64,000 bases of DNA from Chiloscyllium plagiosum (lineage: Eukaryota). Below are positions 2,595 to 45,965 of this stretch, in pieces. Each line of letters starts with the position of its first letter. Within the stretch, counting starts at the first letter, position 1. Below the pieces are notes generated by a model. It did no database searches. It was not told where the DNA came from and was given only the letters and a program-made list of their open reading frames with translations. The translations under genes and the position numbers were made by a program. The DNA is taken from positions 88,464,010 through 88,528,009 of the forward strand of contig NC_057718.1 in assembly GCF_004010195.1 (NCBI RefSeq), in the 5' to 3' direction.

Positions 2595-2619
2595 ATGCCA
2601 GGTGCAGTAACAGCCACAG
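2595..2619 (+). CDS. AKAP12: AKAP12 beta-isoform-type first coding exon (MPGAVTAT + phase-1 G)
   Basis: ATG CCA GGT GCA GTA ACA GCC ACA G|GTATGG. Splicing to 24822 (TT) gives Val and an in-frame join. Length and phase match the mammalian AKAP12-beta N-terminus MLGTITIT-V. It lies in a locally CpG-richer, repeat-free region. Confidence 0.75.
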
Positions 2620-9084: not shown

Positions 9085-9860
9085 CTCTGTCTTGTGTATA
9101 TCATGCTGAGAGGTGTACCCTTTGGTCTGTTCTCCCCATCCCTGCCTGCCCAATATCGTAAATAAATCTAATCCCTTTTGGCCCATATCCCTCCCCAAAC
9201 CCTTCCTATTCATATACCCATTCAGATGCCTTTTTAAATGTTGCAATTGTACCAGCTCCTCCACTTCCTCCGGCAGCTCTTTCCATACATGTACCACCCT
9301 CTGAGAGCAATGTTGCCCTTAGGTCTCTTTTATATCTTTCCCCTCTCCCCTAAACCTTCTAGTTTTCAACTCCCACACCCTGGGGAAAAAGTCTATTTAC
9401 CCTATCCATGCCCCTCATGATTTTATAAACCTCTATAAGGTCAGCCTCCGACACTCCAGGGAAAATAGCTCCAGCCTATTCAGCCTCTCCCTATATATTA
9501 AATCCTCCAACCCTGGCAACATTCTTGTAAAAGTTTAAGTTTCACAACACGAGACCAGAACTGCACACGATATTCCAGTAGTGGTCTAACCAATGTCCTG
9601 TACAACAAGACCTCCCAACTCCTATACTCAATGCACTGACCAATAAAGGCAAGCATACCAAACACCACCTTCACAATCCTATCTACCTGCGACTCCACTT
9701 TCAAGGAACTATGAACCTGTTCTCCAAGGTCCCTTTGTTTGCAACACTCCCAGGACTTTATCATTGTCTCTGAGGCCTGCACTGATTTGGCCTTTCCAAA
9801 ATGCAATACTGCACATTTATCTAAATTAACTCCACCTGCCACTCCTCGGCCCATTGGCTG
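9085..9860 (-). mobile_element. CR1/HER1-type LINE 3' fragment
   Basis: Minus-strand remnants NLDKCAVLHFGK, LYRTLVRPLLEYRVQFWS and VWKELPEEV. Confidence 0.85.
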
Positions 9861-10139
9861 TAATTAAATCATAAAGCTTTACATAAATGGTTGGGAGTAC
9901 AGAACTGCAACATTGCTAAACGTTGACTAGAAGTTGAAACTGTTCATATTGCCCTCATCAGAACTAAGAAACAGACTTGAAAGACAATTTTATGCAGCAG
10001 AAGAGGATGTTAATTGGTCGGGCCATCATTGGCAGGGATATAGAGCTAGTGTGGTTATCAATCTTCATTCTCTGATCAAGCTGGTTGATTCTGATTGAGA
10101 CAGTATATTCCTGTTAGTGAAAGTCTGGTTGGTATAGGG

Positions 10140-11737
10140 AATGCTGGATGACTAAAGAAATTGAGGGTTGGTTAAGGAAAAGAAGAAAGCATATGTCAGG
10201 TATATATAGACAGATAGATAGAGTGAATCCTTTGAGTGTAAAGGCAGTAGAAGTATATTTGAGAGAAATCATGAGGGCAAAAAGGGGACATGAGAGAGCT
10301 CTGACAAATAGAGTTAAGAAGAATCCAAAGGCTTTTTACAAATCCATTAAGGACAAAAGGGTGACTATGGAGAGAACAGGTCCCTTAAGGATCAGCAAGG
10401 CAGCCTGTGGAGCAGCAGGAGATGGGTGAGATACTAAACGAACATTTTGCATTGGTGTTTACTGTGGAAAAGGTCATGGAAGATATTGAATGTAGAGAAA
10501 TAGACGGTGACATCTTGAAAACTGTCCATATTACAGAGGAAGTAGTGCTGGATGTCTTGAAACGCATAAAAGTGGATACATCAGTGAGCCTGACTATGGT
10601 GGAAGGAATAATGAGGGACAGGATGTACATTTATTTGGAAAGGCAGAGACTGATTAGGGATAATCAACGTGGCTTTGCGTGGGGACATCATGTCTCATGA
10701 ACTTGAATTCTTTGAGGAAGTAACAGAGGATTGAGTGCAGAACGGTAGACATGAACCAAATGGACTTCAGTAAGACGTTTGAGAAGGTTCCCTGTGGGAG
10801 ACTGGTTAGCAAGATTAGATCTCATGGAATACAGAAAGAACTTGCTGTATTGGAAAAAGAACTGGCTCAAAGGTGGACGGGGGAGAGGGTGATGGTGGAG
10901 GGTTGTTTTTCAGACTGGAGGCATGTGACCAGTGGAGTGCCACAAGGATTGGAGCTGGATCCACCACTTTTCATCATTTATATAAATGATTAGGATGTGA
11001 GCATAAGAGGTATGGTTAGTAAGTTTGCAGATGACACCAAAATTGGAGGTGTAGTGGACAGCGAAGAAGGTTACCTTGGATTACAACAGGATCTTGATCA
11101 AGTGGGCCAGTGAGCTGAGAAGTGACAAATGGAGTTTAATTTAGATAAATGTGAGGTGCTCCATTTTGGAAAAGCAAATCTTAGCAGGACTTGTACGCTT
11201 AATGGTAAGGTCCTAGGGAGTGTTGTATCAGAAGGATATTGTGAAACTTGAAAGGGTTCAGAAAAGATTTACAAGGATGTTGCCAGGGTCGAGGATTTGA
11301 GCTATAGGGAGAGGTTGAATAGGCTGGGGCTGTTTTCCCTGGAGCGTCTGAGGCTGAGGAGTGACCTTGTAGAGTTTTATAAAATCATGAGGGGCATGGA
11401 ATAGGGTAAATAGACAAGGTTTTTACCCTGGGGTGGGGATTCCAGAACTAGAGGGCAAAGGTTTAGGGTGAGAAGGGAAATATATAAAAGGGACCTAAGG
11501 TGCAACATTTTCACGCAGGTGATATGTATATGGAATGAGCTGCCAGAGGACGTGGTGGAGGCTAGTACAATTGCAACGTTTAAAAGGCATCTGGGTGGGT
11601 ATATGATTATGAAAGATTTGGAGGGAAATGGGCCGGGTGCTGGTCGGTGGGACTGGATTGGGTTGGGATATCTGGTCAGCATCGACGAGTTGGACCGAAA
11701 AGGTCTGTTTCCGTGCTGTGCATCTCTATGACTCTGC
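10140..11737 (+). mobile_element. CR1/HER1-type LINE ORF2 fragment with internal deletions and 3' end
   Basis: NPKAFYK, MDFSKTFEKVP, VTSGVPQG, FADDTK, WNELPEDVVEA, and the 3' tail ctctatgactct. Confidence 0.9.
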
Positions 11738-13984
11738 GTGGTCAGGGAGTTGCCATGGGGATGCAGCATAGTTTGGTTATTTCTGACCCTTTTGGAACAA
11801 GATGCGATATGTACAAAAGTCTCTAGTTCTGATGACTGCAAGTTGAAAAATGTTGAGTTCTCGTCTCCTTTTCAGCAATGTTGGAGATTTGTAGCAGAGG
11901 ACAGGAGATGTCCCTTGGAATAGGGAGAATGTGGGATTGCTTCCAAGTTTTGAGCTTGTGGAAGATATTATAACATTCCAAGTTAGTGGTGGGTGGATAA
12001 AGGGATGTGGGAATTGGATATTTAATGTTTAAACTATTCTTCTGCATGAAGGGTAAGCCAACACTGATCAACTTGGAGGATTCTTGATTTGTGTAATGTA
12101 TTTGTGTTGGATTTTCTGCACGACTGTGTCCCTCTTCAGTAACCATATTGTCTGTGTGGCACTCCCAGGCTGCTATTTGCCCCCTATCAACCTCTGTGCT
12201 AGAGCTGCAAGTCTTTAGTTTTTCACCTCAGCCTGTGAATTGGGTTAAGTGGCCATTCTGATACTGAATTGGTCCCATTTACTATCAAATACCATTTGAG
12301 GTGTGCTTGTTGGTTAAACCTAGTTCCTTCACTGGGTGCCCTGAAGTGAAATGAAGCCGGTTCCTATGGATACATGTTAGTCCCCTGTGCAATATGGCTG
12401 ACGTTCTTGAATTGCAAGCGGCTTTAAGTGTTTGGCTTTAGAATGTGGGTACCCAGCCAATGGGTTATGGGGGACAAACGCATATTACAAATAAGAGGAA
12501 TGGGGTGTGAGTGTCTGAGCTTCCTAAATTAGCAACAGGATTTCATTGGCATATTATCATAACGTGTCTTAACTACAAATGCATAACATTAGATTGAGAT
12601 GAAGCTGGCAATGTAATGGAGATGGGAATAGTGTTTGTAGTGTTGTTAATGTGAGTTCTAAGCTTCATCTCTGGCAGTGTTGGTGTTTATCTTCACATCA
12701 CATGGTTGTCATGTAAAGGCATGGAGTTGGAGTTAATTTTGGTGTTCCCATCATTGAGTTGAAAATTTCAATTTTGGTTCACCCAGTAATGAATATCAGG
12801 AAAACGGTGACTTTTGTGGACACATTGTGACGGTAGTGGTGAGGGTTAGTGCAAATCACCAAACTCCCTCTCCATTTTGGATGTGAAATGAAAGACCAAG
12901 GATTAGTCCTGGGGGAGCTCAAGGTAAGTGGGTGGGAAGAGGAAGGTATTGTAGTATTGTAACCTGAAAGCCACTTGCAACTAGAGAAGTAAGAATGGAA
13001 CCAGAGTTCAGCAATCCCACCCACTGGAATGATGGTGAAACAGCAATGGAGGCTGCAGACAGGTCCATGAGGGTGAGATTGGTGTAGTCATGTGGGATGC
13101 CATTTGAGACTTTTGGCAGGGTTGGAAAGCTGTGTAGAAGCATTGAGGAAGCATGGATTTCTAGGAGAGATTGGCAGGAGTTTGAGTTACAGCATGTCCC
13201 ATGACTTTGGCCGAGAAGAACAGGTTGGAGTTGGGATGGTGTTTTCAAGGATAGAAGAGCCATGGGTGTCTGGAGTCGGCTGATGAATTATGATGTCAGG
13301 ACTTGAAGAGAGTGAACTGTCGCCACATCCATTTATGTGACGACCAGGGGAGGAAGATGGGAGGTCAATAGTCTTAATGACAATAGGATTTCAAACATCA
13401 GGAGCTGGGTCACTTGGGCTAGAGGAGATCAGAAAGAGAAACTGAAGAAGGATGTAAACTGTATGAGTCAGACAACCTTTTGAGGCAGTGTGGCCTGATG
13501 CATAAGGGTAAGAGAGAGAAGTAACAAGAGACAGGAGATCGGTTAGTCTAAATTTGTTGACACAGTCCGTGAGCTACTCAGGCTTGCTGCTTTAAATTTC
13601 CCTTTTAAGCCTTGCTGAGTGAAATCTGTGCTCTATGCATCCAATAGAGAGAATGACTATAACTTCCACTGGCAGTTCTTTTTTGTGTTGTGTGCTGCCT
13701 TTGTCAAGGGGCTCTGTGATGCTTTAATGCAAAACTTTCCTTAGTGTGTAGGGCCTTCTCAGATGGCAGCCTCCAGGTGTGGTCTGAGCCAACCATCTGC
13801 CCCCTCTTTTGAAGGGGCTTTAGTTAACTTAACCTTGAAGGGGCTGAGGGTGGGGGTGTTGTCACATGATGACTTTGTTTCTGAAGTGTTTTGTTTGAAT
13901 TTCTCTGCAGTTATGTAAATGAGCATGCGGAACATTTACACAGTCAGCATTGTCTGCTTTATTGTCCAGTTTAAATTCTTAGTA

Positions 13985-15135
13985 ATACTTAGTCATCCAG
14001 CAAGGAAACAGACCCTTCAACCCGACTAGTCCACACCGACCAGATATTCTAAATTTAATCTGGTCTGTTTTGCCAGCATTTCTCTCTAACCCTTGGAGAC
14101 AGTAAGGACTGTAGATGCTGGAAGCCAGAGTTAATAGATGTGACGCACAGCAGGGCGAGCAGGAAAGTCGATGTTTTGGGCTGAGACCCTTCGTCAGGAC
14201 TGGGGAGGGGGTGGGGAACCCAGAAATAAATGGGGAGGGAGAGGGCCTGCTGGGGAAGGGTTGGTGATTGGTGGATGCAGTTAGGGGGTTATTGTGATTG
14301 TTTGGTGGAAAGGGGTGGAGTGGATAAATGAGTAGGAAGATGGACAGATTAGGTCAGGTCAGAGAGGCGGGGAGGAGGACTGGACATGGGATAAGGCTCC
14401 AGATGCCTTTTTAAATGTTGTAACTGTACCAGTCTCCACTTCCTCTGGCAACTCATTCCATACACTCACCACCCTCCGCATGAAAATATTGTCCCACCGG
14501 TCCCTTTGGATTCTCTCCTCTCTCACCTTAAAGCTATGCCGACATGGTTTTGGACTCTCCTACCTTGGAGAAAAGACCTTGGCTATTTACCTCATCTACA
14601 TCCCTCATGATTTAATAAATATCTAGAAGATCATCACAAACCACTTACAGTCTAGGGGGGAAAAAAATTTCTAGCCTGTCCGATCTTTATCAACTCAAAT
14701 CCTCCAGTCTCTGTAACATGTAAGTCCTTTTTGCTCTGTTTCCAGTTTATAACATCCTTTCTATAGCAGGGTGACCAGAATGGTACATGGTACTCCAAAT
14801 ATGGCCGTACGAATGTCTTGCACAGCCATAATATGATGGCTCAATGTCTGTACTCCGTGCTCTAACCAGTGAAGGCAAGCGTGCCAAATGCCACCTTCAT
14901 TATCCTGTCTGTGTGAGACTGCTTTCAAGGAAGCATGTACCTGTGCACCTTGTTCTCGCTGATGGACATCACTCCATAGGGCCCTACCATTAACTGTAAT
15001 GCCTGTTCTGGTTTGTCGAACAAAAATGCTCCACCTCCCATTTATCTGAATTAAACTCTATTTGCCATTCCTCAGCCCAGTTGATCAAGATTCTGTCGTA
15101 CTGTGGGATATCTTTCTTCACTGTCCACCGTACCA
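13985..15135 (-). mobile_element. CR1-type LINE fragment interrupted by a PLE
   Basis: CR1 3' tail at ~13990-14090, resuming at ~14398; WAEEWQIEFNSDKWEV. Confidence 0.75.
14094..14397 (-). mobile_element. Penelope-like element 3' fragment
   Basis: gtaaggactgtagatgctgg... The minus strand reads GUC-CUGACGA-A-GGGUCUCAGCCC-AAAACAUC-GAC, a CpG-decayed hammerhead core. Confidence 0.7.
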
Positions 15136-15284
15136 CTGATTTTACTTTCCTCCCCCCAAATGCAATATATAGGTCATATTGTATCTGTAGTGCCTTAGTC
15201 ATATCTCTTAACCTTTTGAATCAGACGGTTATCTGTCTTAAGTCCTGTTCTAGAGACTTTATCATATCATCCAGGATAACACTT

Positions 15285-15465
15285 TATATTAGTGTTGAGG
15301 GACTCCTGGACTGTCAGGTACACCTTTTGAGATCTTAATTAAAGACCCAGTCTGCTGCCTTTTGAGTGTAAAAGATCTTACGGCATTATTTAGAAAAAGG
15401 GCAAAGACCAACATTTATTCTTTAACTAGCATCTCGATTGACAGCTGCATTTTCTTGTGTTGCAG
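15285..15465 (+). mobile_element. Deu-domain SINE-like fragment
   Basis: agtgttgaggga..ctgtcagg..cttttgag..gtaaaagatc..ggcattattt resembles the AmnSINE1/SacSINE1 Deu domain, from recall. Confidence 0.5.
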
Positions 15466-16790
15466 CCATAGAGTCTCTCAGCACGGACTCTTCACTCCAA
15501 CCAGTCCATGCTGACCATAACCCCAAACTAAACTAGTCCCACCTACCTGCGCTTGGCCCATATCTCTCCGAATATTCCATATTCATGAACATATCAACAT
15601 GTCTTTCAAAATGTCATAACTGTATCCATATCCATCACTTCCTCTGGGAGTTCATTCCACACACTGTCCACTTTTTAAAAAACTGTTGCCTTTCATATCT
15701 TTTTAAAATCTTTCTCCTTTCACTTGAAAAATATGCCCCTAGTCTTCAAATTCCCCACCCCAGGGAAAAGACACCTGCCATTCACCTTGCCTATACCTGT
15801 CAAGATTTTATAAACCTCTCGGTTTCCTATGCTCCAATGAGAAAATTCTAGCCTAGCCTTTATAATTCAAACCTTCCATTCCTGGTAAATCTTTTCTGAA
15901 CCTCTCCAGCTTAATACCATCTTTCCTATAAGAGGTTGCAGTGGCTCAGTGGTTAGCACTGCTGCCTCACCTCACCAGGCACCTGGGTTCGATTCCAGCC
16001 TTGGGTGACTGACTCTGTGTGGAGTTTGCACATTCTCCCTGTGTCTGCTTGGGTTTCCTCCCACAATCCAAAGATGTGCAGGTTAGATGGATTGCTAAAT
16101 GGCCCATAGTGGCCAGGAGGGGTATGTAGGTTAGGTAAATTAACAGTGGGGAATGCAGAGTAGGTCTGGATGGGATGCTTTTCAGAGGGTCAGTGTGGAC
16201 CAGATGGACCGAATGATCTGTGTCCACACTGCAGGGATTCTGTGGTTCTAGGGCAACCAGAACCGTGCACAATACTCCAGAAGAGGTCACCCCAATATCC
16301 TATGCAATCTTGACATGACGTTCCAACTCCTAAACTCAAATGAAGGTAAGCATGCTAAACTCTGCCTTAACCAGCCTGTCTACGTGTGATGCAAATTCCA
16401 AAGGATTATGTGCCTGACCCTCCCAAGTCTCTCTGTTCTACAACACTACCCAGGGCCCTACCATTAATTGTAGAAGCCCACGTTTGGTTTTACCAAATGC
16501 AATACCTTGCGTTTTCCAAATTAAACTCCATTTGCCACTCAGCCCATTGACAAAATTGATCAAGGTCTTTGTCATCTCAGAGAACCACCTTCACTGTCTA
16601 TTGTTCAACCAATTTTGGTGTTATCTACAAATGTGCTAACCATGCCTTCTATATTTTCATCTAAATCATTTACATAAACAACAAACAAAAGTGGACCCAC
16701 CACTGATCCCTGTGGAACTCCTCTGCTAACAGGCCTCTGATCCAAAAATCCATCACTGTGCCTCCAACTGTTAAACCAATTTTGTATCTG
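15466..16790 (-). mobile_element. CR1-type LINE fragment with a nested SINE
   Basis: PVSRGVPQGSVVGPLLFVVYVNDLDENIEGMVSTFVDNTKIG; CR1 3' tail near 15470-15560. Confidence 0.85.
15933..16248 (+). mobile_element. HE1/V-SINE type SINE nested in CR1
   Basis: gtggctcagtggttagcactgctgcctcac..ggttcgattccagcc; same family as 8342. Confidence 0.8.
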
Positions 16791-23969: not shown

Positions 23970-24755
23970 GCATCGTGGAGATGTACAGCATGGAAACAAC
24001 AGACCCTTTGGTCCACTTCGTCCATGCTGACCAGAGATCCCAACCCAATCTAGTCGGACCTGGCCCCATATCCCTTCCTATTCTTATACCCATCCAGATG
24101 CCTTTTAAATTGCCTGTAATTGTACCAGCCTCCACACTTCCTCTGGCAGCTCATTCTGTACACGTGCCACCCTCTGAGTGAAAAAGTTGCCCCTTAGGTC
24201 CCTTTTATATCTTTCCCGTCTCACCCTAAACCTATGCCCTCTAGTTCTGAATTTCCCCATGCCAGGGAAAAGACTTTGTCTATTTATCCATGCCCCTCGT
24301 AATTTTAAAAACCTCTATAAGGTCACCCTCAGCCTCCGACGTACCAGGGAAAACTGCCCCAGCCTGTTCAGCCTCTCCCTATAGCTCAAATCCTCCAACC
24401 CTGACAACATCCTTGTAAATCTTTTCTGAACCCTTTCACGTTTCATAACATATTTCTGATAGGAAGGAGACCAGAATTGCATGCAGTATTCCAACAGTGG
24501 CCTAACTAATGTCCTGTACAACATGACCTCCCAACTCCTACACTCAATACTCTGACCAATAAAAGAAAGCATATCAAATGCTGCCTTCACTATCCTAATC
24601 TCCTTGAAAATGGAGTCACAGGTAGCTATGAACCTGCACTCCAAAGTCTTTGTTCAGCAACCCTCCCTAGGATCTTACCATTAAGCATACAAGTCCTGCT
24701 AAGATTTGCTTTCCCAAAATGCAGCACCTCACATTTTATCCAAATTAAACTACTA
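23970..24755 (-). mobile_element. CR1/HER1-type LINE 3' fragment just upstream of the AKAP12 acceptor
   Basis: LYRTLVRPLLEYCMQFWSP..ERVQKRFTRML..RERLNRLG. Confidence 0.9.
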
Positions 24756-24821
24756 CTTTCTCTTGACACTGAATCAGATTCTATTTTGATACTTACCTTT
24801 TTGAATCTTTTCTATTTGCAG

Positions 24822-27800
24822 TTGAACCGCCTATCAAAACCCAAGAGGAGAAACTAATCGAAATGGACTTTGAGAAAAAGGAGACTCCCACTCAAACCAA
24901 AGATGAGGAGCCAAGAGATTCCCAGGAAGATGCAGATCCTCCTGTTGAAATTGGAGAGGAGGCGCAAGCTGGTGAGGTTGGCTTCAAGAAGGTCTTCAAA
25001 TTTGTGGGCTGCACGTTCACAGTGAAGAAAGAGAACCCTGACAAGCTGGAACCAGTGCAGTTGCTGACTGTGAAAAAGGATGAAGCAAGTGAGACAGATG
25101 GCGAATCTAAGCAAGAAATGGGAGGAATGACAAATGGTGATTTGAGTCTTGCTGCTCATGAGGCAGAGGAGAGTCCACCTGAGGTTCTCACCCCTAGAGA
25201 AATGGAAGAGTCCACCAGTCAGGCAGAACCAAAACCCACTGTTGCCGCGGAGCCAGTGGAGTCTGCCGTTAATCCGGTCGAGAACCCTGCTGTGGATTCC
25301 CCCTTGAAGAGATCTTTTTGGCAAGGCTTTTTCTCAGTGTTGCAAAGGAAGCCAAGCTTCAAGAAGGCTGAAGATGAACCCCTGGTCATTGGGGAGAAAC
25401 CTGAGGTAAATGGAGAGCAGAAGGAAAATGAGGAGCAAGTCGTTGCTGCTGGAGATGTTAATGGTGAGGAAGGTGACCATGGACCTTCGAAGGGGCCTTC
25501 CGCGTCACAAGATGATGCTGAAATCTTGGAGGTTGGCCCAGTGAAAGAAAAAGAGCGAGATGACGATTTTGAGGACCTCTCAGCGGAACTGGCCAAAGTC
25601 AGAGAGGCTGAAGAAGGATTGATTTTGGACTCTAGGGAGAAGATTGGGGAGGACAGCGTGTCCACAGAAGACGATGGGCAATGTGGCCCCAAAATAAAGA
25701 TGACCGTCCCAGCCTTGGAGATGGATCAGGCGACCCAGTTGGCTCAGAGTCAGGTGAAGCCAGAATCTGCTGCCATCGAAGCTTTGGCAGGGCTTCAAAC
25801 AGAACAGACCGATGTAGACATGGATCAAACACCAGGCAAGGTCCAGGAGCCTGTACTGGGAGAAGTGGAGCTCTTGTCATCCCAGGAAAAGGCCAAGTTG
25901 CAGGGCAGCCCTCTGAAGAAACTCTTCACCAGTAGTAGCACCAAAAAGCACTCTGGGAAGAAACGAAAACGTGGCAAAAGAAAGGCCAAACTGAGAAATG
26001 ACGACGAGACACGACTTCAGTCATCCACCGAATCGGAGGGCAGTCCAGATGGCCAGAAGATGGACATCCCTCCTTTAACATCCCCTGAGGAAGCGGGTGA
26101 GGCAGTCTCTGCAGAGATGCCAGATGCTTCCAATCCTGAGGTAGAGACAATAAACGAAGCCAGTGATGGCGAGAGGAAGAAAGAGAACATTACCGCATGG
26201 GCGTCATTTAAGAAGTTAGTGACATCAAAAAAGCGCCCCAAAGTACAATCTGAGAGTGACCGAGAAGATGAGCAGACTGATAAAGCGAAGGGAGCAGCTG
26301 TCTCCTCTAGTGAGAATGTGAGCGCTGCCCCGGCCGATAAGCCAGAAAAACCAAACACCGAGGACCTGAGTTTGGAGCGGAGTACTGAGGATCCCAAAAA
26401 GAAAGCGGATGCCCCTGTAACCTGGGAGGCGCTGATCTGCGTCGGGTCCTCCAAGAAGAGAACAAGAAAGTCCAACTCGAAAGCCCCGCAACCAGATGTG
26501 GAGGCACAAAGATCACCCGAGGGGGCCATCCAAGTGCCGGACAATGCTGAGGAACTGAAAGCTAGTGTTCCACAGGATACAGATCAGGAGCCAGGCACAG
26601 CATCTCCAGAAGGTACCGTCAGCAGTCCGGTGGAGGCGGATGTATCTGACGGCGCTGTCTCCGTGTGGGAATCCTTTAAGAGGTTGGTGACCTCAAGCCG
26701 CAAGTCCAAATTCAAGATTGAAGACCGTGCAGACGACTCTGTTGTTGCAGCAGAAGCTGCTGTTCCCGAGACCGAACAGGCCAAGGAGGAGTCCTGGATG
26801 TCTCTGAGAAAACTGATCCCAGGCCGAAGAAAGAAGAGGTCTGATACCAGAGATGACCAGTCTGTGGTGGAGGATGTTGGAAAAGAGACCACAGAGGCAG
26901 AGTTGGGAGTGAGCAAGGGTGAAGAGCCAGACACACCAGCAGTGGTTCCCCTTTCTGAATATGATGCTGTCGAAGAAGAGAGAGCGGCTAAGGAGCAGCA
27001 GGAAACACGCGGAACAAATGCTTTTCCTGAGGGGGAGGTTATAACCAAGTCGGGAGCACTAGCTGAAGGTGGGGAGCCAAGGGTCGAGCAAGCCATTACC
27101 GTGAACCAGGGAGCTGTAGAAACAATCAAAAGCAGCGTTGATGAGAGATCACCATCATGGATATCAACCGCAGTCCCGGACATCATTGAGAAGAGGGTTG
27201 AAGGTGAAGGAAAAGTAGTCGAAATTGTGACAGAGGGGGAGCAGTTGGAGCGTGGCGACGCAGCCTCGCCAGCAGAAGTAACCAAAACAATCTGTCACGA
27301 TGAGACTGCCAGCGAGGCAGAGGAGATTACCTGTGAGGTTGTCATGGCACCAGAGTACCTGGCTGAGAAGACAGCCGAGATGGTTTCAGCAGTCTTGCAG
27401 ACCTCTGAGATCCTAGTGACAACAGCGGAGTGCACTCTTATGCCAGAAGATGAGGTTCTGGTAACCAGACAAACCCATGAGTCGCTACAGGAGGCGGTTG
27501 TGGAAGTGACAGAGGCGGTCTGCGAAGAGACCCTGGTGGCCGCCCACCCTGTTGTGGATGACACAGTGGTGGCGGCCCATGAAGAGACTCTGGTGGTCAC
27601 CCACCCTGTTGTGGATGACACAGTGGTGGCCCATGAAGAGACCCTGGTGGCTGCCCACCCTGTTGTGGATGAGACAGTGGTGGCCCACGAAGAGACCCTA
27701 GTGGCCGCTCACCCTGTTGTGGATGAGACAGTGGTGGCCTGCGAAGAGACTCTGGTGGCTGCCCACTGTATTGTGGATGAGACTGAGGCGGCCCGTGAAG

Positions 27801-30796
27801 AGACCCTGGTGGCCGCCCATCCTGTTGTAGATGAGATTGAGGCGGCCCGCAAAGAGACCCTGGTGGCCGCCCACCCAGTTGTGGATGAGACAGTGGTCGC
27901 CTGTGAAGAGACTCTGGTGTCCGCTCACCCTGTTGTGGATGAGACAGTGGTGGCCTGCGAAGAGACCCTAGTGGCCGCCCACCCTGTTGTGGATGAGACT
28001 GAGGCGGCCCACGAAGAGACCCTGGTGGCTGACCACCCTGTTGTGGATGAGACTGAGGCGGCTCACGAAGAGACTCTGGTGGCTGACCACCCTGTTGTGG
28101 ATGAGACAGTGGTAGCCCGCGAAGAGACCCTAGTGGCCGCCCACCCTGTTGTGGATGAGACAGTGGTGGCCCATGAAGAGATTCTGGTGGCCGACCACCC
28201 TGTTGTGGATGAGACAGTGGTGGCCCATGAAGAGATTCTGGTGGCCGACCACCCAGATGTGGATGAGACTGAAGCGGCCCACGAAGAGACTCTGGTGGCC
28301 GCCCACTCTGTGGATGAGACTGAGGCGGCCCGCGAAGAGGCTCTGGTGGCTGCCCACCCTGTTGTGGATGAGACAGTGGTAGCCCACGAAGAGACTTTTG
28401 TGTCTGCCCACCCTGTTATGGATGAGACAGTGGTAGCCCGCGAAGAGACCCTAGTGGCCGCTCACCCTGTTGTGGATGAGACAGTGGTCGCCTGTGAAGA
28501 GACTCTGGTGGCTGCCCACTGTATTGTGGATGAGACTGAGGCGGCCTGTGAAGAGACCCTGGTGGCCGCCCATCCTGTTGTAGATGAGACAGTGGTCGCC
28601 TGTGAAGAGACTCTGGTGTCCACTCACCCTGTTGTGGATGAGTCGGTGGCGGTCCGCGAAGAGACTCTGGTGTCCGCCCACCCTGTTGTGGATGAGACAG
28701 TGGTGGCCTGTGAAGAGACCCTAGTGGCCGCCCACCCTGTTGTGGATGAGACAGTGGCGGCCCGCGAAGAGACTCTGGTGTCCACTCACCCTGTTGTGGA
28801 TGAGTCGGTGGCGGTCCGCGAAGAGACTCTGGTGTCCGCCCACCCTGTTGTGGATGAGACAGTGGCGGCCCGCGAAGAGACCCTGGTGGCCGCCCACCCT
28901 GTTGTGGATGAGGCAGTAGTGGCCCACGAAGAGGCAGTGGTGGCCCACGAAGAGGCTCTGGTGGCTGCCCACTCTGTTGTGGACGAGAAAGAGGCAGCCC
29001 GCGAAGAGACTCTGTTGGCTGCTTGCCTGGGTGTGGATGAGATGGAGATGGCCGCCCACTCTGTTGTGGACGAGACAGAGGTGGCCCATGGAGAGACTCT
29101 GGTGGCTGCCCACTCTGTTGTGGACGAGAAAGAGGCAGCCCGCGAAGAGACTCTGTTGGCTGCTTGCCTGGGTGTGGATGAGATGGAGATGGCCGCCCAC
29201 TCTGTTGTGGACGAGACAGAGGTGGCCCATGGAGAGACTCTGGTGGCCGCCCACTCTGTTGTGGACGAGACAGAGGCGGCCCATGAAGAGGCTCTGGTGG
29301 CCGCCTACCCGGATGTGGACGAGACAGAGGCGGTTCATGAGACTCTGGCTGCCCGCCCGGGTGTGGACGAGACAGAGGCGTCCTGCGAAGAGACTCTGGC
29401 CGCCCACTCGGTTGTAGATGAGATGGGGGCGGCCCGTGAAGAGACGGCCGCTTGCTCAGTTGTGGACGAGACTGTGGTGGCCGCCCGCCCGGTTGTGGAA
29501 GAGACTGGGGCGACCCACAAAGAGACGGCAGCTTACCTGGTTGTGGACGAGATGGGGGCGGCCCGTGAAGAGACGGCCACTCACCCGGTTGTGGACGATA
29601 CTAGGGCGGTCCGCGAAGTGACTCTGGTGGCCGCCTGCCCAGTTCTGGACGAGACAAGGGTGGCCCATGAAGAGACTGTGGTGGCTATCCGCCCAGTTGT
29701 GGACGAGATGGGGGCGGCATGTGAAGAGACTGTGGTGGTCGCCGGCCCGGGTGCAGAGGAGACGGAGGTGGCCCACGAAGAGACAGTGGTGGCCGCCCGC
29801 CCAGTGGATGAGACGGGGCTGGTACATGAAGATTCTGTGGTGGCCGCCTGTCCTGTTGTGGATGAGACGGAGGTGGCCCACAAAGAGACTGTGGTGGTTG
29901 CCCGCCCGGTTGTGGATGAGACGGGGGCAGTCTGTGAAGAGACTCTGGCTTCCCACCCGGTTGTGGAAGTGACGGCGGCCTGCGAAGAGACTCTGGCGGC
30001 CGCTCGCCCAGATATGGACGAGACGGGGGTGGTCTGCGAAGAGACGGCCGCCCACCCGGTTGTGCCTGAGATGGGGACAGCCCGCGAAGAGACTGTGGTG
30101 GCCGCCTACCCGGTTGTGGATGAGACGGGGGCGGCCCACGAAGAGACTGTGGTGGCCGCCTACCCGGTTGTGGATGAGACGGGGGCGGCCCACGAAGAGA
30201 CTGTGGTGGCTGCCCGCCTGGTTTTGGATGAGACCGGGGCGGTCTGCGAAGACACTGTGGTGGCCGCCTGTCCGGTTGTGGACGAGACTGGAGTGGCCCG
30301 CGAAGGGACAGTAGTGGACGCCTGCCCGGTTATGGACGAGACAGGGGTGGCCCGTGAAGGTTCTGTGATGGCCACATGCCCGGTTGTGGACGAGACCGGT
30401 GTGGCCCGCCTGGTTCTGGATGAGACCGGGGCAGCCCGCGAAGACATTGTGGTGACCGCCTGCTTGGCTGTGGACGAGACGGGGGCGGCCCGCGAAGTGA
30501 CTGTGGTGGCCGCCCGCCCGATTGTGAACGAGACGGTGGCGGCCTGCGAAGAGACTCTGGTGGCCACCTGCCCGGTTGTGGACGAGATGGGGGTGGCCAG
30601 CAAAGAGACTCTGGTGGCCACCTGCCTGGTTCCGCAGGATACAGATCAGGAGCAAGGCACAGCATCTCGGGAAGGTACCATCAGCAGTCCAGTGGAGAGG
30701 GATGTATCTGACAGCGCTGTCTCCGTGTGGGAATCATTTAAGAGGTTGGTGATCTCCTTTCTGCTGACCCTTGCAACTTTTCTGTTGGGCCACTGA
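24822..30796 (+). CDS. AKAP12: A-kinase anchor protein 12 (gravin/SSeCKS), main large coding exon
   Basis: Acceptor ttttctatttgcag|TT at 24821/24822 is in frame with the 1977-aa ORF. Gravin motifs are present: GFKKVFKFVG..VQLLTVKKDE, SSQEK..QGSPLKKLF, WASFKKLVT, WEALICVGSSKKR, WESFKRLVT, ESWMSLRKLIPGRRKKR, PAVVPLSEYDAVE and ERSPSWIS. The gene sits next to ZBTB2 as in mammals. Confidence 0.95.
27521..30628 (+). repeat. Coding minisatellite, ~54-bp/18-aa unit ([R/H/C]EET[L/V]VAA[H/R/C/Y]PVVDET[V/E/G][V/A]A), about 60 units
   Basis: Visible directly in DNA and translation, counted by eye. It includes a 141-bp higher-order duplication (for example 28981 vs 29122). Confidence 0.97.
30629..30756 (+). 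repeat. 128-bp direct duplication of 26567-26694 (WSK2-containing segment)
   Basis: Manual alignment shows about 11 mismatches in 128 bp and no indels. VPQDTDQE..VSVWESFKRLV is repeated. Confidence 0.95.
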
Positions 30797-32800
30797 AATC
30801 TTGATTACTGATAAATGCCAAAGATGTAGATCTTTTTGTAGCTGAGTTCAGAACCCAGTAGCAACCTTTGCTTTGACTGCAGTAGGTCACTGCAGTGACA
30901 GTGGGCTCAGTGATGACACAGCTTTCAGAGTTCCAATTCTTTGGCTTGCTCTCTTTAAAAGGTAATCTAGGTGCTTCCTTCACTGTTAGTCTCTTGTTGC
31001 TCTGTTTAATCAGTTGCTTAGGCACTCTGACCCTACTGCAGAGGTAACAACATGTCCAAAACTCATTGTCTTTTGATATTATTTTGGAGTTCTTTTTAGT
31101 CTCATTCAGTACTTTTCCATAAGGGTTGTGTTTTTCTTTTACCTTGAGCCTTTTCACCAACACTTTTTAAAGCTGTTGACGTTTTTCCTCTTTTCTCAAT
31201 GTTCTAAACTTTACATCAATAGTTCATTGTTAACGAAACACAACACTAGTACACAAATTCTTGTTTCAAGCTGGTTTCTTGAGCTTCCCTTTGGACAATA
31301 GGATGTTACTTCCATTTACTGTGTGCATTATGGAATGTCCTTGCTCTTTATCAAGACTTTTAAAAAAATTACATTTCATGTTCCTCTATCATCTTCAAAG
31401 CCAAGAAGGGTGCCTAAAACCTGATGTAATTTTTTCTCTAATTCTAGGCCTAAGGTTCTCTGCATGATCTTTTTTACTGCATAGCTCACTAAGTTGATTA
31501 TTCAATGCACCTTGCGTTCTATTGCACCAGTTTTGTTGGCAGAGTGACAAAAACACTTAGATCTTCAGAGATAAAGCCAGCATTATAGATCTTGCTTGAT
31601 AATGGTTCTTCAGCTTTTTCTGTTGCTTGTTTTCATCCAGTCCTAAAGCCTATCCCCCCAGCATCCCCTTTTCTCTGTTTCTGGCCTGTCTTTATTTTTA
31701 GTCAAGGTCCTCTAATATTTGATGTGTGAGTCTTCTTGTTGACTCGATCGTTCTTTCTCTGACTTTTAACCTTTTGCATGAGAATCAAGACAATCTTTTG
31801 TTCTCAAACATCCACTTGAGCTACAAATTGTTGCCTTTCCTAAAATCTCATTTAAGCTGGTGAGTTTCTTTAGGCTTCCAAGTTTTCCATTGTCTCAGCT
31901 GAAATGCATTTGTAATTCTGCCAGCTTCCATTCTGTGTACTTTTTCTTTGCTTTGTCTGTTGGATTCTGAGTTCTCTCTTCTTTCTGTGTTTGCTTGAAC
32001 ACTTCATTTTGTTTGAGGAGTGCTTAACTTAATTGTTTCCACTCCCAGCAGCATTGAAAAATGATCTCCCTCCACTCAGAATGCCCCTTTTAATAATGTC
32101 TTCTGGTCGTCCGAGTTCCAGTCTCATTGGCTTTCATTTTATTTTACTCTGGCGTAAATTGTGGTAACCACTGATACGTGAATGCTGTTACAGTCTACAT
32201 CTGTATTACTTTGGTCAGTGGAGTTTCTGTCTTTATTGTGATAGTTGATCTGATTTACTTGGCTGTCCAGATATTCCAGTAACTGGCTTTGCCAGGGTTG
32301 ATGTTTAAACTGTAGTTTTTGTCATAATTTCACTGCATTCAAACAGCACCAATCAACCCCGATGTGACCTCTTGCTTTTGGAGGTTTTGCACCTCATATG
32401 TGAGAACTTGTATATTATCTTTCACCAAGAAATCTCATGACCATACTGATCTCTGGAGAACTACTCTGTCTGGCTTGATCTTGTTCATGATGACTTCGGG
32501 ATCCTCAGCAGCTGCACTTTGAATTACTGAATTAAGTATATTATTTGTGTAATCCTCAAGTTGAAAGATGCAGCTGCTATTTTGACGAGGAGCCACTGTG
32601 ACTTTTTCATGTTTCTCTCCAAGTGAGTAGATAAGGACTTGTTTGTGCTAATCTTTCTCTCTTCCAGTCCATCTTCATAAATAAGAATATAGATTGATAA
32701 TCTGTACATTTCTTGAATGCTGTTTTGTACTCCTTGATATTCTAATGATCCAAGTAGCAGCCCCTTTGGGTGTTAGTGTTTTGTTTGTTTTTGATGCCTT
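30760..32800 (-). mobile_element. Decayed RTE-clade LINE (APE endonuclease and RT remnants)
   Basis: Minus-strand remnants occur in RTE order: ATWIIR, IQEMYRLSIYIL, IYSLGEKHEK (32632-32603), FNLRITQI, NQINY (~32255), DCNSIHVSVV (~32195), SKIYNAGFISEDLSVFVTLPTK (~31600-31530), GFEDDRGT and EEKRQQL. There are many frameshifts, and the 3' boundary below ~31070 is weaker. Confidence 0.8.
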
Positions 32801-33369
32801 TTAATAATCATTGCAAGGTAACAGACTTTGCAGTTCATGGTGGCCCCTTGAGTGGTGTCAACCTCATTCATGCTGATAATTGTTTATATTGACCATATTT
32901 GATGAAGGGAAAGAGGTTTAATGAGGTATTTTTGTTGTCATCCTTGCCTGTTTGAAGGGATCACTCTCTCTTCTCAGAGGATCCCTTGCCTGGCTCCAGC
33001 CAACTGTTGGTCTAGTAGTGCCATGGAGACTTCTGGCTCTGCCATTGGTCATGACCTCTAATAGTACTCAAGATCAGTATCAGCAGCATGTGGGACTGTC
33101 AGCTACATGCTGGGAGGTGGTGGAGGGGTCATTGAGCTATCCCTGCTAAATTGCCTCAGTAACCAAGAGATTTTCTCCTCTTGAACAATTCATGCTGATA
33201 CTATGGTGTCAACTTCTAATTTTGAAATCATTCTATTTCTAAATCTCAAGGTGCCTTTGTTCAGTTTTCTAAATTTATTTAGAAGCCTTTTCAGACATTT
33301 GTGACCCAGAATTTAACCTGTTAAAAGATGAGCAGCAACTATACTTGACTAATTAATTAGTCATTGTTC

Positions 33370-33560
33370 ACCGGCACAGGACCGTAGGTATCTCTCTTGA
33401 GAGGGACAATTGGCTTTGCAGTGTGAGCATCACTCCGTTAAATACGGCACAAGGTGAGGAACCAGGTTTTAATAAAGTACCACAGTGTGATTGAGATTTA
33501 ACCTACATTGTTGGTACAATTCTTGTAGTACACGCTAGCCATTGAGCTAACCAATGCCCC
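33370..33560 (-). mobile_element. tRNA-derived SINE fragment
   Basis: The minus strand begins ggggcattggttagctcaatgg with an A-box and a degenerate B-box. Confidence 0.45.
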
Positions 33561-33607
33561 CATTCATTGTAAAACATTGATAATTTTATTTTTGTGTGCA
33601 TTTGCAG

Positions 33608-35200
33608 AGCTCCAAACAGACACTCGTGAAATAGAATGTGAAGACGCAACGCTACTGTGACAAGACCAAGTACCACTGTTGATTGACAATCCCGAATCAA
33701 TTCGCGAGCTATATCTACATTGGCATTTAATAATTTCTTGCTTTTAGCCATGATAAACACAATGGTGTCTGAAAATTGAAGGGGTATTTGCTCAAAAATC
33801 TGGCGATGCATCTTTGTATCATCAGTTTGTTACATTTAGGATATTCTTAGAATTAAACTTGTTGATTAAAAAGCTGTGTCTTTTACATTTTAATTTGGAT
33901 TTTGATAACTGAGTTAACTTTGGTGTTCTTAATGTTTGATAAAGGACTACAGTGTTGACAGCTTAAACCTAGGACAACCTGAGAGTGAAACAGGTCCATA
34001 GAAATGGTAGGTACAGCAAGCTAAACTTAATGATATTTCATGATTTGATTTGCTTGAACAAAGCTCACCAAGATCATTTAGAATTTTGAAGCACACTCAA
34101 GGTTCTGGCAAAGCTGATCTCAATTCTAAGGAATAACTTCAGATTTGAAGTCCTCCTAATGGAGTATAAAGCTAACTTTTAGTGCATTGTGCAAAGTTGA
34201 ACCATGCAAAATTGGCCATGCTGACATCCTGGACTATTGCATATGTTCCAGAGGATGAAATGTGACCATCGTTCATAGAAAAGTACAGCAAAGAACAGGC
34301 CATTTGGCCTATGCTGTTGTGCTGAGATTCATTTAATTCCTTTAGACTGTTGGGTGACTGGATCCAGATTGCTAAAATTGAAGCCTTTAATGAAAGTGCA
34401 TTGTTGGGTTACTAGTTAAGGTTTGTTTGGACTTCCATAATGACCTCCAAGATGTGCCTTGCTATTGCATACAATTAATGCTCACGTGCCATTAATGTTC
34501 CTGTCTTAATGTTTTTTTGGCAAATTTGTGACTGATCTCATCATTCCATCCCAATATTTTTCTCACTAAACTCCAGCATTAAAACAATGTTTTAAACTGA
34601 TTATTCAGGTTACCCTGTTCAGTATATTTCCTCCCTTACTCAATTAATAAACCAACACCCTATCCTTGTAACACTCACTGTACAGTAAATGATCAGGTTA
34701 AAAATGGTAACTACTGTCTACTTGTGTACTGCATGAATTTAAGATTAGATTCCCTACAGTATGGAAACAGGCCCTTCAACCCAACAAGTCCACACCGACC
34801 CTCCGAAGAGCAACCCACCAAGACCCATTTTCCCTCCGACTGATGCACCTAAATTATGGGCAATTTAGCATAGCCAATTCACCAGACCAGCACAGCTTTG
34901 GACTGTGGAAGGAAACTATAGCACCTGGAGGAAATCCATGCAGACACTGGGATAATGTGCAAACTCCCATAGATAGTTGCCTGAGGGTGGAATTGAGCTC
35001 AGGTCCCTGGCACTGTGAGGCAACAGGGCTAACCACTGAGCTGCCTTGAGCAGAATCTATGACAGAGACTGATGCTGCTCTTATTAACGCTGCTGTGCTT
35101 TTATAACTGATGTGAAATTGACATTTGTATAAATTGTATTTGCTGTGTATCTAAGCCATATTGGAATAACTAAAACAATATGAATAAAGTAATATTAGCA
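33608..35200 (+). other. AKAP12: Candidate terminal exon/3'UTR of AKAP12
   Basis: Strong acceptor ttttatttttgtgtgcatttgcag|AG at 33607/33608, followed by mostly repeat-poor, AT-rich sequence. AATAAA occurs at 34646 and 35183. Confidence 0.4.
34742..35047 (-). mobile_element. HE1/V-SINE type SINE
   Basis: Reverse complement of gctcagtggttagc..tgcctcacagtgccagggacc..; tail agattagattccctacag. Confidence 0.8.
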
Positions 35201-36689: not shown

Positions 36690-38340
36690 AATGATTACCT
36701 AGTAAAGTTACTAAATAGGACTACTTGCGTGTCAAACAGCATAAGCAATCCCACAACCAACAGATCAGATCACAACTCTGGTCTTGCCACATCTAGTCAT
36801 GAATGGTGGTGGACATTAAACAAACTAGAGGGAGCAGCCCCACAAATATCCCCATTCTCAACAATGGGTGAGACCAACACTTCCAGTGTAAAAGAGAAGG
36901 CTGAATCTTCTTCAGCTAGAAGGGTCAAGTGAATGATCCATCTCTGCCTTCTCCATTAGTCCCCAGCATCACAAATGCCAGTTTTCAGTCAATTCAATTC
37001 ACTCCACAGGATAACAGAAATACGCAAGGATGCACTGGCTACTGCAAAGGCTATGGGTCCTGACAACAGGACTGAAGGCCTGTTCTCTAGAGCTTACCTC
37101 TCCACCAACTAAGCACTACTAGAAGAGTAAAACACAGGCAAATTTCCCACACTGTCAGGTAGATGCCAATCAGTCTACTCTTGATCAGTGAAGGATGAAT
37201 TTACATGGAGGGGGTCATCAACAGTGCTATCAAACAGCACTGACACAGCTTGTGCTCCACGAGGACCGTTTCCCTCCTGACCTCATTACAATCTTGATAC
37301 AAACATGGACAGAAGCACTTATTTCCAGTGTTGAGATGGGAGTGAAAGCCTTTGACATCAATGCCATATTTGACCATGTGTGGCATCAAGGAGCCCTGGC
37401 AAACTGGAATCATTGGGTCTCAAGGGCAAACATGCCACTGGCTGGAGTCATACCAAGTACATAAGATGATGGTTGTGGTTGTTGGCGATCTCAAGGACAT
37501 CTCTGCAGGAGTTTCTCCGGGTGGTGTGTCTTAGGCTCAACCATCTTCAGTTGCTTCATCAATGATTAGAAGTGGCTGCACACTGTTCAGCACAATTCAT
37601 GATTTTTCAGATACTGAAGCAGTCCATTTTGAACACAACAAGATTTGGACAATATCCGGATTGACCTGACAAGTAGCAAGTAACATGTTACAAATGCAAG
37701 GCAATGAGGGAGTATCTCCAATAAGAGAAAGAGAAATTAACCACCATCTGCTGCCATTCAATAGTATTACCATCACTGAATCCCCATTATCAATATAGGG
37801 GACTACTACTGACCAGAAAATACAGTTGCTACAAGAGCAGATCAGGGGTTAAGAATACTATAGCAAGTAATTCACCTCCTGACTCCCCCCAAAGCCCGTC
37901 CACCATCTACCAGGCAAAAGTCAGAAGTGTGATGGAATACTCCCCACCAATCTGGATGGGTGCAGCTCCAACAAAACTCAAGAAGCTTGGCATCAGCCAG
38001 GACAAAGCAGCCTGGTTGATTGACATGGCATCCACTCCCTTCACAAGCAATGTTCAGTGCAGCAATGTTTACAATCACAGAAATTTGCTAAAGATCGTGA
38101 GACAGCACCTTCCAAATCCATGACCACTTCCATCTAGAAGGACAAAAGCAGCAGATGCATTGGAACACTGCCACCTTCAGATTTCCCTCCAGGCCACTCA
38201 CCACCCTGACTTAGAAATATGTCACATGGATTGCAGCTGTGCAAGAAGCAGCTCACCACCATCTTTTCAGCAGCAACTAGGGACAGGAAAATAAATACTG
38301 GTCAGCCAGTGACATCCATACCCCAAGAGGGAATAAAGGA
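36690..38340 (+). mobile_element. Old CR1-group LINE ORF2/3' fragment
   Basis: AFDINAIFDHVWHQG, YQAKVRSVMEYSPPIWMGAAPTKLKKL..QDKAAWLI. Confidence 0.75.
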
Positions 38341-42131: not shown

Positions 42132-43530
42132 TCATTCCACTAAAACGGCTTGACCATCTTCCACGTTATGCACGGTTTCTGACAATGACTGGCTCACTTC
42201 TGTCACTTCGCAAGCTTCTGAAGAGCCTTCCCCTTGAATTGTTGGTTGGCCTTCCATCAAAACAAAGGTATCAGAGTTCTGGTTTTGACATGAATGCCGA
42301 ACAGCTTCACTAGCAGTTGAGAAGCTTTTATCACACAGATTGCACTTGTACGACTGGTTTGATTGGTTTGTTGCTAGGTACACTGGATCCATTAGTGACT
42401 GGCTCGTTTCTTCAGAAGAACCTTCAGTAAGCATTGCTTGCTTATTATCCACCATCATATAGGTATCAGAATTCTGGTTAAGGCACACATGCCTGGCAGC
42501 CTGGTTGGCTCTACAGAATGTTTTATCACAGGTACTACACTTGTATGGCTTGCCAGTGTGAATATACATATGCTCTCGCCAGTGACTTTTCTGGATGAAT
42601 TTACGTCCACAGATGGAGCATTCATATTTTCGCCTTTTCACTTCCCTATCTTGATCCCCTAGCTCTATGTTGTCAATGTCTGCAATGTCTGATGGGGGTG
42701 GTGTTTCGGCTTGTAGTTGGCCATCTGCCATTGGTGAATCATTTTTCTGCTGTAGTTCGCCATCACTAATTACTTCTGCTTCAGGTATTTCCTCAGGATC
42801 TTTTGTAGGTTTCCCAGGCTCTACCAATTGGCCTAGCATATTCATTCCTGCTGGGTTGGTAACTGGAAGTGACATTCCTGTATGGAGCTGCAGGTGCTCA
42901 CGTAGGCTGCTTCGTAGAGTGAACCTTCTGCCACAAAGATGACAGACATAAAACTTGGGAAAACCACTGTTCCTTTTCATAATACTGGGTTTAACATGAG
43001 CTATTGCATGTATACCAGGCTGCCCATCTAATAGAGGGATATTTTCACATCGTTCTTCAGCCGTTGGAGGACCAGCTGCAGAAATCAAGCCTTGTTGTGT
43101 GCCTAAAGTCGTTGCAGATGACTGCCCAATCTGTTGAGACGGCTGAAGCATCTGTGCACCCTGGGGATGCTGCTGGTTAGCTTCTGCACCTCGTTCTTGC
43201 TCCATCCGAGAAGGATGAGCATGTGACCTGGGCTCTCGACAAGACTTTTCTGCTGCTGATAACCTACTCTGAGGTGTGGTTTGATTATCTGCAATCTGGA
43301 TGCCATATAATGATGATGTCCAAGCAAAAACCTGATCAGGACGAGGAACCGCTCCGTGGCTGGCTAAGCTGGCTTCCTGTACCAGTGGGTATGCATGCAG
43401 GAACTTAATTCCCTGCTCGAGACGGACAGGATCAATAATCTGGGGAGCCATTTTCCCGGTGTACATTAAATGCAGGAGGTAGCTAAAGATATCTGGCTGA
43501 ATATCAGTTGGTTTCAGTCGGACACAGTCA
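42132..43530 (-). CDS. ZBTB2: ZBTB2 last coding exon (BTB C-terminal part plus four zinc fingers)
   Basis: Acceptor ttttcacag|T gives a phase-2 join to SDCVRLKPTDIQPDIFSYLLHLMYTGK. It has C2H2 fingers CHLCGRRFTLRSSLREHLQLH and CSICGRKFIQKSHWREHMYIH, plus two atypical C2HC fingers. Total CDS is 1572 nt (523 aa). Confidence 0.97.
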
Positions 43531-43888
43531 CTGTGAAAATATATTTTAAAATACTTACAGGCTAGCAGAGGCATAAAACAAACAGAATCAAATGAACAAA
43601 ATTTACAAGTTTCAGAAAAGCACAGTTGAACAGGAACAGTTCAGCTACTTGGGAAAAGTGGTCTGTGGGCACAAATTAGCTTTCATGCTGTAGATGAGGG
43701 GCTAGCAGTCACATGGCTGATAAGTGCAATCAACATCAAAATGGATCTATAGCTTTTCACATTTTAAAACATTTTCATTTTGGGACCATCTATGGGATAA
43801 GATCATTTTAAAAAAGGGAAAAATAAAATTGCGCTAATCAGAAAAGGCACAATATACTTTTAAATTTTACATCAGAGTCAAGCATTAC

Positions 43889-44924: not shown

Positions 44925-45965
44925 TTCATTGCTTTTCAGACTGGAGGCCTGTGACCAGTGTGCTACAAGGATTGGTGTTGGGTCCACTGCTTTTCATCAT
45001 TTATATAAAATAATTTGGATGTAAACATAGGAGGCATAGTTAGTACGTTTGCAGATGACACCATAGGTGGAGGTCTAGTGCACAGCGAAGAAGATTACTT
45101 CAGAGTACAGTGCGATCTTGACCAGATGGGCCAATGGGCCGAACAATGGCAGATGGAATTTAATTTAGATAAATGCGAAGTGTTGCATTTTGGAAAGACA
45201 AATCAGAGCAGGACTCATACAGTTTAATGGTAAGGATCTGCAGTGTTGCTGAACAGAGACACCTTGGAGTGCAGGTTCATAGTCCCATGAAAGTGGAGTC
45301 TCAGGTAGATAGTATAGTGAAGGCAGCATTTGGTATGCTTTCCCTTATTGGTCAGAGCATTGAGTATAAGAGTTGGGAGGTTATGTTGTAGCTGCACCGG
45401 ACATTGGTTCGGCTACTTTTGGAATATTGCGTGCAATTCTGGTGTCCTTCCTATCAGAAAGATGTTGTGAAACTTGAAAGGGTTCAGAAAAAATTTTGAA
45501 AGATGTTACCAGGGTTGGAGGGTTTGAGCTACAGGGAGACGTTGAATAGGCTGGGGCTGTTTCCCTTGGAGCAGAGGCGGACGGGTTATAGAGTTTACAA
45601 AATCATGAAAGGCAAGGATAGGGTAAATAGACAAGGTCTTTTCCCTGGGGTGGGAGAGTCCAAAACTAGACAGCATAGGTTTAAGGTGAGAGGGGAAAAA
45701 AAGATTTAAAAAGGACCTAAGGGGCAACTTTTTCATGCAGAGGATTGTGCGTGTATGAAATGAGCTGCCAGAGAAAGTGGTGGAGGTTGGTACAATTACC
45801 ACATTTAAAAGGCATCTGGATGGGTACATGAATAGGAAGGGTTAAGAGGGATGTGGGTCAAATGCCAGAAAAAAATGGGACTAGATTAATTTAGGATATC
45901 TGGTTGGCATGGATGAGTTGGATCAAAGGTTTGGTTTCCGTGCTGTACATCTCTATGACTCTAAT
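44925..45965 (+). mobile_element. CR1/HER1-type LINE 3' fragment
   Basis: TFADDT, WAEQWQMEFNLDKCEVLHFGK, and the 3' tail ctctatgactcta. Confidence 0.9.

Follow-up and report, generated by a model that had tools for sequence, protein, structure and literature searches.

AKAPs are defined by a PKA-binding helix. In AKAP5, the sister gene of AKAP12 (gravin, SSeCKS), this helix has been described as invariant (PMC12083921). For AKAP12 itself, a review describes polybasic domains that suffice for membrane targeting, and mice without the PKA/PKC/beta2-AR-binding region of the protein that were studied as adults (PMC7670535). Chiloscyllium embryos are available for experiments (PMC5947634). A literature search outside which most subscription papers lie found no paper on elasmobranch AKAP12, and among the papers listed for sharks and Chiloscyllium none mentions AKAP12. 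Neither AKAP12, gravin nor sharks occur in the main text of two papers from 2025 that treat AKAP evolution, and no usable paper was obtained for the gravins of Xenopus and zebrafish.

The stretch of DNA analysed in this paper, referred to as the window, comprises 64,000 nucleotides of the bamboo shark Chiloscyllium plagiosum. The reading considered best, with a probability of about 0.65, is that it carries a single spliced AKAP12 without approximately 1,100 rear residues, and that the product, whose tail is an acidic repeat, likely serves as a membrane/PKC/calmodulin scaffold without anchoring PKA, because the missing rear half includes a predicted RII-docking helix, here called helix A. The features of the locus are as follows.

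2595..2619, + strand: coding part of an alternative (beta-type) first exon, MPGAVTAT followed by a split codon; donor GT at 2620.
24822..27496, + strand: conserved front half of the large exon, carrying polybasic regions and WSK motifs, three of each.
26567..26694, + strand: source of the duplicated stretch, including the second WSK motif (self-BLAST, 91.4% over 128 bp).
27359..27439, + strand: eroded motif, nearly invariant in other chondrichthyans and superficially helix-like.
27497..30628, + strand: repeat array that keeps the reading frame, with some 58 units, each of 54 bp (18 aa, EETLVAAHPVVDETVVAH type); its net charge is -210.
30629..30756, + strand: 128-bp copy that supplies the donor in use (GAG/GTTGGT, GT at 30745-46).
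30745..33607, + strand: last intron, 2,863 bp, with a GT..AG joint; contains the apparent stop of the ORF (30794-30796).
33608..34770, + strand: last exon, adding APNRHS (6 residues), TGA at 33627-33629 and a 3' UTR to at least 34770.
42132..43640, - strand: exon of a neighbouring BTB/zinc-finger gene (Pfam BTB and C2H2 matches), which bounds the locus.

The stop-to-stop ORF at 24773-30796 (2007 aa) is the large AKAP12 exon of the bamboo shark. A splice acceptor AG sits at 24820-21, and the exon therefore begins at 24822; it extends to 30744 and consists of the conserved front half, the 3,132-bp array of 54-bp repeats and the 128-bp copy. Contigs of runs X1, X5 and X15, that is, three of the four runs and three studies, connect 30744 with 33608 across an intron bounded by GT..AG, while the fourth run, X19 (raw single-cell reads), had no depth at this joint; X1, X5 and X6 are taken for RNA by guess, and the kind of X15 is unrecorded. 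The same join of copy to last exon was found in run X6, from a related organism with indels unlike those of the window and of P0001 (Chiloscyllium punctatum). A preliminary description had ended the protein at the stop at 30796. Since the contigs splice 30744 to 33608, that stop is intronic, and the spliced protein ends in ESFKR/APNRHS with TGA at 33627-29. The duplicated WSK segment in the same description was confirmed as a 128-bp copy of 91.4% identity, but the donor follows 30744 and the duplicated motif is thus cut in half. A separately spliced PKA site, also proposed there, can be dismissed for the observed splice form, whose last exon adds 6 residues only.

Contig pieces cover 33606-34770. 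The last exon is likely the ancestral one, because APNRHS resembles the C-termini EQTTS/EKTPS of relatives in a comparison of proteins only. At 33608-33629, the acceptor in use seems to have moved upstream by a few bases relative to the one that is likely ancestral, with a small deletion, and the new frame nevertheless stops at the apparent old stop codon. In the 3' UTR, a SINE-like repeat (34742-35041) lies between AATAAA signals at 34646 and 35183.

AKAP12 is one locus in the genome, with 2 matches that both fall inside the window, and the exons that precede these, whose MGSG start is intact, lie at most 55 kb upstream of the window. Loose contig ends of X1 and X15 at 24820 continue into an exon about 13 kb upstream of the window. 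Together with the single locus, this indicates that the contigs are spliced transcripts and not a processed copy. Isoforms of the whale and zebra sharks match the beta-type first exon at their N-termini (tblastn), and the splicing of this exon is predicted from sequence. The last intron holds decayed repeat DNA on the minus strand, with matches of 71-72% to a locus on another contig; judged by one motif, it is presumably a LINE. An inverted rear half after 30756, which the purine-rich, coding-looking minus strand might have represented, was rejected: this is decayed repeat DNA, and 0 of 15 relatives match it. The neighbouring gene is presumably ZBTB2, and a human tail-to-tail AKAP12-ZBTB2 synteny is likewise assumed. 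Interspersed repeat fragments of several families, 65-80% alike, occur at 9137-16550, 23978-24749, 36700-38300, 45130-45970 and 62316-63340, one of them stopping about 70 bases ahead of the acceptor of the large exon. An Rfam search gave no match.

The first 870 residues share 94% identity with P0001 and 72% with the whale shark, and four stretches of the ORF match Pfam PF03832 (WSK). Front-half likeness, WSK motifs, three polybasic regions and alternative first exons identify the gene as an orthologue of AKAP12. The N-terminal gravin landmarks had been reported up to AEMVSAVLQ (~27380); they are present, and likeness to relatives extends further, to about 27496. Changes have accumulated in this region. 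Among 228 columns invariant in nine outgroups, 34 are changed here vs 12 in the whale shark (Fisher p = 0.0009), a comparison without a control gene for the general rate of the lineage. In the motif alignment, polybasic region 2 has lost some basic residues. Approximately one third of the invariant-column changes fall within the last 45 residues ahead of the array, and 9 of the 34 lie in or border the motif at 27359..27439, where run X6 is missing 9 bases at 27374. These changes fit a front half under relaxed constraint and are compatible also with decay. A gene that is transcribed with little protein function, its array a neutral expansion, would explain the 2.8-fold excess of changes over the whale shark, the longer branch, the weakened polybasic region and an array length that varies between species (about 690 aa in P0001, 1044 aa here). 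Such a gene would hardly be expected to keep a frame open over 5.9 kb through 58 repeat units, or to show only frame-preserving indels in the front half against run X6 (18, 6, 3+1+2, 3 and 9 bases). Moreover, the WSK cores, both start exons and the splice sites are intact, and 194 of the 228 invariant columns are kept. Decay is therefore regarded as improbable, and a transcribed, frame-preserved gravin that no longer anchors PKA is the likely reading.

Repeats of about 1040 aa had been noted in the ORF, and the array indeed measures 1044 aa: its bounds at 27497-30628 enclose 3,132 bp, or 58 x 54 bp, a copy number taken from the assembly bounds. The first unit of the array aligns best to residues 1274-1295 of the whale shark protein. 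It is likely that the array expanded from an older 17-18 aa shark repeat; a profile of the repeat gave weak matches to only 2 of 16 other proteins, and the proposed descent thus rests on pairwise likeness. AlphaFold2 returned an all-beta model for the repeat (pLDDT 70.9, pTM 0.59), for which no PDB match was obtained at E <= 0.001. AlphaFold2 is reported to over-predict beta-solenoid-type repeat folds (PMC11795689). Given that bias, the missing PDB match and the charge, a beta-solenoid fold is regarded as doubtful. The net charge of -210 favours disorder instead, and the acidic tail is probably disordered. A consensus-pattern match inside the repeat (residue 1793) was also rejected as a PKA helix, its hydrophobic moment of 0.22 being low.

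Beyond the front half, likeness to the whale shark ends at residue 908 and restarts in the older 17-18 aa repeat zone. Everything beyond that zone is absent, and approximately 1,100 non-repeat residues are gone vs whale and zebra sharks, with breakpoints inferred from the protein models of relatives. The rear halves of 15 relatives have no match in the window outside the ORF. Within 200 kb upstream of the window, the proteins of five relatives match the upstream exon only, and the middle lost segment (whale shark ~909-1270) was sought in the window and in these 200 kb. The C-terminal 298 aa of the whale shark found no match among 132 candidates in a genome search run without a positive control. 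No Hemiscyllium protein was found among the shorter and longer homologues.

An assembly artefact or a hidden exon would place the rear half in a collapsed repeat or elsewhere in the genome. Tandem arrays of 3 kb are difficult to assemble, and the interior of this one is crossed by no contig. Gene models can also lose helix A, as is seen in chimaeras, where 2 of 5 models are without it and 3 have it (the sawfish model is truncated). On the other hand, the window contains no N, and both ends of the array are bridged by contigs with 0-1 mismatches. Single contigs of X1 and X15 run from 24820 through the front half into the array with one mismatch, and contigs from 30450 continue from array through copy to last exon with zero mismatches ahead of the joint. 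Additionally, P0001 of the independent species C. punctatum is composed of the same three parts, namely front half, array and copy, and the lost C-terminal part lacks a genomic match (0/132 candidates). The shared layout, and a related organism's run that splices in the same way, make mis-assembly unlikely; at the C-terminal junctions, the mis-assembly considered in the preliminary description is ruled out by the contigs. Overall, an artefact or hidden exon is the least credible of the explanations weighed here, with a very small probability. The layout and the splice of the bamboo shark gene are direct observations.

Two conserved helices, A and B, occur near the C-terminus among 128 homologues. 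Helix B, of the mammal type, reads LESKSNKIVQSVIQTAV in mammal P0115 and is found in amniotes, many amphibians and basal ray-finned fish. Helix A, VVETAAAIVEVAIDAAA in the whale shark, is situated upstream of the helix B site at a distance of 50-90 residues. Of 16 chondrichthyan representatives, 11 carry it, with scores of 34-53 bits; it is also present in sturgeons and amphibians, with at most a trace in amniotes. The helix B HMM places 0 of the 16 chondrichthyan representatives above 0 bits. An ungapped profile reveals a B-like helix in chimaera (15.5 bits), and by both methods none of the 15 elasmobranch representatives has a recognisable helix B. Both helices are present in chimaera P0014 and in sturgeons and paddlefish (P0015-P0019), only helix A is recognisable in Xenopus laevis (P0088, P0089), and only helix B in amniotes. 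Helix A may already have been described in Xenopus or zebrafish gravin papers.

Neither helix is present in the bamboo shark. In the spliced product and in six frames of the window, no match to either profile was found, the best scores being -2.8 (A) and -0.3 (B) bits, where true helices mostly score 30-54 bits; the profiles were built from the same proteins, so that members score by construction and absence is the informative part. This agrees with the earlier statement that no recognisable PKA helix exists in the ORF or downstream. The significance attached to it has to be revised, since a missing mammal-type helix is the rule among chondrichthyans, most sharks carry the different, upstream helix A, and the mammalian helix was not the proper reference. 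The notion of a gravin retaining polybasic and WSK modules without a PKA anchor consequently holds at the level of sequence, although it had been reached through the wrong helix. The Pfam RII_binding_1 scan proposed as a check would mislead, as it matches only 1 of 9 full-length AKAP12s. The Pfam helix B model (PF10522) found no match in the product, and none across the genome, where the control was also silent. By descent the gene is an AKAP12, yet it carries neither of the helices by which an AKAP would be recognised; on these comparisons it is a lineage-shared structural variant, real and spliced.

Whether helix A anchors PKA bears on this reading. Its hydrophobic spacing is of the AKAP type, judged by a consensus pattern. 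It has no Pfam RII_binding_1 match and no PDB sequence match. The predicted complex of helix A with the RII-alpha-type docking domain of this genome (L005) reached 0.40 vs 0.16 for the best of 3 controls, with at least 87% of contacts common to the runs and a partner pLDDT of at least 60. In the calibration of this test, which covers solved complexes and has peptides and disordered chains outside its range, 51 of 78 solved complexes attained the mark, as did 2 of 108 mismatches; at <=0.60 it was reached by only 5 of the 78, and by all 4 passing mismatches (of 180). Because AKAP-RII complexes are solved, the pass may reflect memory. The prediction gives weak support to docking of PKA-RII by helix A. 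Two RIIa docking-domain genes, L010 and L011 (G000:C4:3263282-3263392 and 3313546-3313656), lie 50 kb apart and are a possible tandem R2D2-type pair.

It could be argued that PKA anchoring was lost earlier. Helix B would then have decayed in the ancestor of elasmobranchs and helix A would have another partner, so that the gravin of every shark and ray would be free of PKA and the bamboo shark would have deleted an idle region. The unrecognisable helix B of all elasmobranch representatives would agree with this, as would the lack of Pfam and PDB matches for helix A and its absence from models of several lineages. Against it, helix A has been kept from chimaera to frogs in a part of the protein that changes fast, it combines AKAP-type spacing with a weak pass in the complex test, and it is the only recognisable helix of the Xenopus laevis proteins. 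An earlier loss is therefore considered unlikely, while ranking above the other alternatives.

A replacement PKA site at 27359-27409 would also alter the conclusion. Lineage-specific changes common to C. punctatum have created paired hydrophobics in the register of helix B, and a joint A+B profile ranks this 17-mer first in the protein, roughly 10 bits higher than the ancestral motif. Its score, however, is 1.8 bits, a value reached by 112 of 200 shuffles, compared to 18-44 for true helices; its hydrophobic moment is the same as that of the ancestral motif, there is no Pfam match, and run X6 is without three of its residues, including an anchor methionine. With a chance-level score and partial deletion in X6, the site was rejected as a new PKA helix, and a replacement there is very improbable.

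Losses of helix A are also seen in other lineages. Neither helix exists in 3 of 3 Carcharodon models (P0004, P0129, P0130) or 8 of 8 Cetorhinus models (P0005, P0131-P0137). The lamniform models share an internal gap of approximately 437 aa that removes both helix sites and leaves a normal C-terminus. In these protein models the gap is flanked by two Ile-Gln dipeptides and looks like a microhomology deletion. All 4 Mobula models (P0024, P0138-P0140) are without helix A and a recognisable helix B, with a 7-residue gap in helix A of Mobula birostris P0024. The repeat region of Mobula is much expanded, and its C-terminus is unlike that of other elasmobranchs. In a front-half tree, Lamniformes and Mobula are separate from Chiloscyllium, whose sisters, the whale and zebra sharks, keep helix A. 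The three losses are apparently independent, those of Lamniformes and Mobula being known from gene models (protein) only. A broader scenario can be proposed tentatively, at somewhat less than even odds: the ancestral jawed-vertebrate gravin would have carried tandem PKA helices A and B, of which amniotes kept B and elasmobranchs A, and bamboo sharks, mackerel sharks and devil rays would have independently deleted the last one, giving PKA-free 'AKAPs'.

The arrangement in bamboo sharks could have arisen as follows. In a Chiloscyllium ancestor, the following steps would have occurred, in this or another order. One deletion would have brought the front half up against the old zone of 18-aa repeats, and the repeat would have expanded. 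A second deletion may have taken the rest of the exon together with its donor, a 128-bp copy templated by sequence 4 kb upstream would have been inserted at the break, and a cryptic donor inside this copy would have taken over splicing to the last exon. Source and copy differ in 8 of 39 codons, 5 of them non-synonymous. An identical donor 9-mer is present in the source copy (window 26680-26688). Use of this source-copy donor (26682/26683) was seen in no contig among the matches listed, and a short isoform without the array via this donor is possible. Myristoylation and the polybasic regions would still target the protein to membranes, from which PKC or Ca/calmodulin would release it, as in mammalian gravin, without PKA cargo.

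Such a natural, species-shared loss would separate the membrane/PKC/calmodulin role of gravin from its PKA role. Helix A would represent a second conserved candidate PKA site in non-amniote gravins that is missed by Pfam, and the copy would exemplify how, once a large piece of coding sequence has been deleted, a short templated duplication can provide another splice donor.

Compared to the AKAP12/gravin/SSeCKS of other vertebrates, the bamboo shark gene has orthologous sequence with the three polybasic regions and WSK motifs, a myristoylation-type alpha start, a separate beta-type first exon, and a large exon followed by a tiny last one. It differs in the loss of the approximately 1,100 rear residues with helices A/B, the 1044-aa repeat and a last donor inside a duplicated piece. 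The lamniform (Carcharodon, Cetorhinus) and Mobula models agree in having no helix A and no recognisable helix B; they differ in the form of the loss, an internal gap of ~437 aa with a normal C-terminus in the former and a 7-residue helix A gap in Mobula birostris. The AKAP150 repeat forms of AKAP5 in rodents and passerine birds belong to a sister AKAP that likewise has WSK and polybasic elements, and Val/Ala/Glu-rich repeats have expanded in it to variable numbers in particular lineages. The PKA helix of these forms is described as invariant, and their repeat serves as a spacer some 250-340 aa long (PMC12083921), whereas in the bamboo shark the repeat is 1044 aa long and terminal, and the helix is gone. 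In AKAP12-t/t mice, a gravin without the PKA-binding region exists in a living vertebrate, but this allele is engineered, and PKC and beta2-AR binding are reported to be lost as well (PMC7670535). The bamboo shark allele, in contrast, is natural and common to more than one species.
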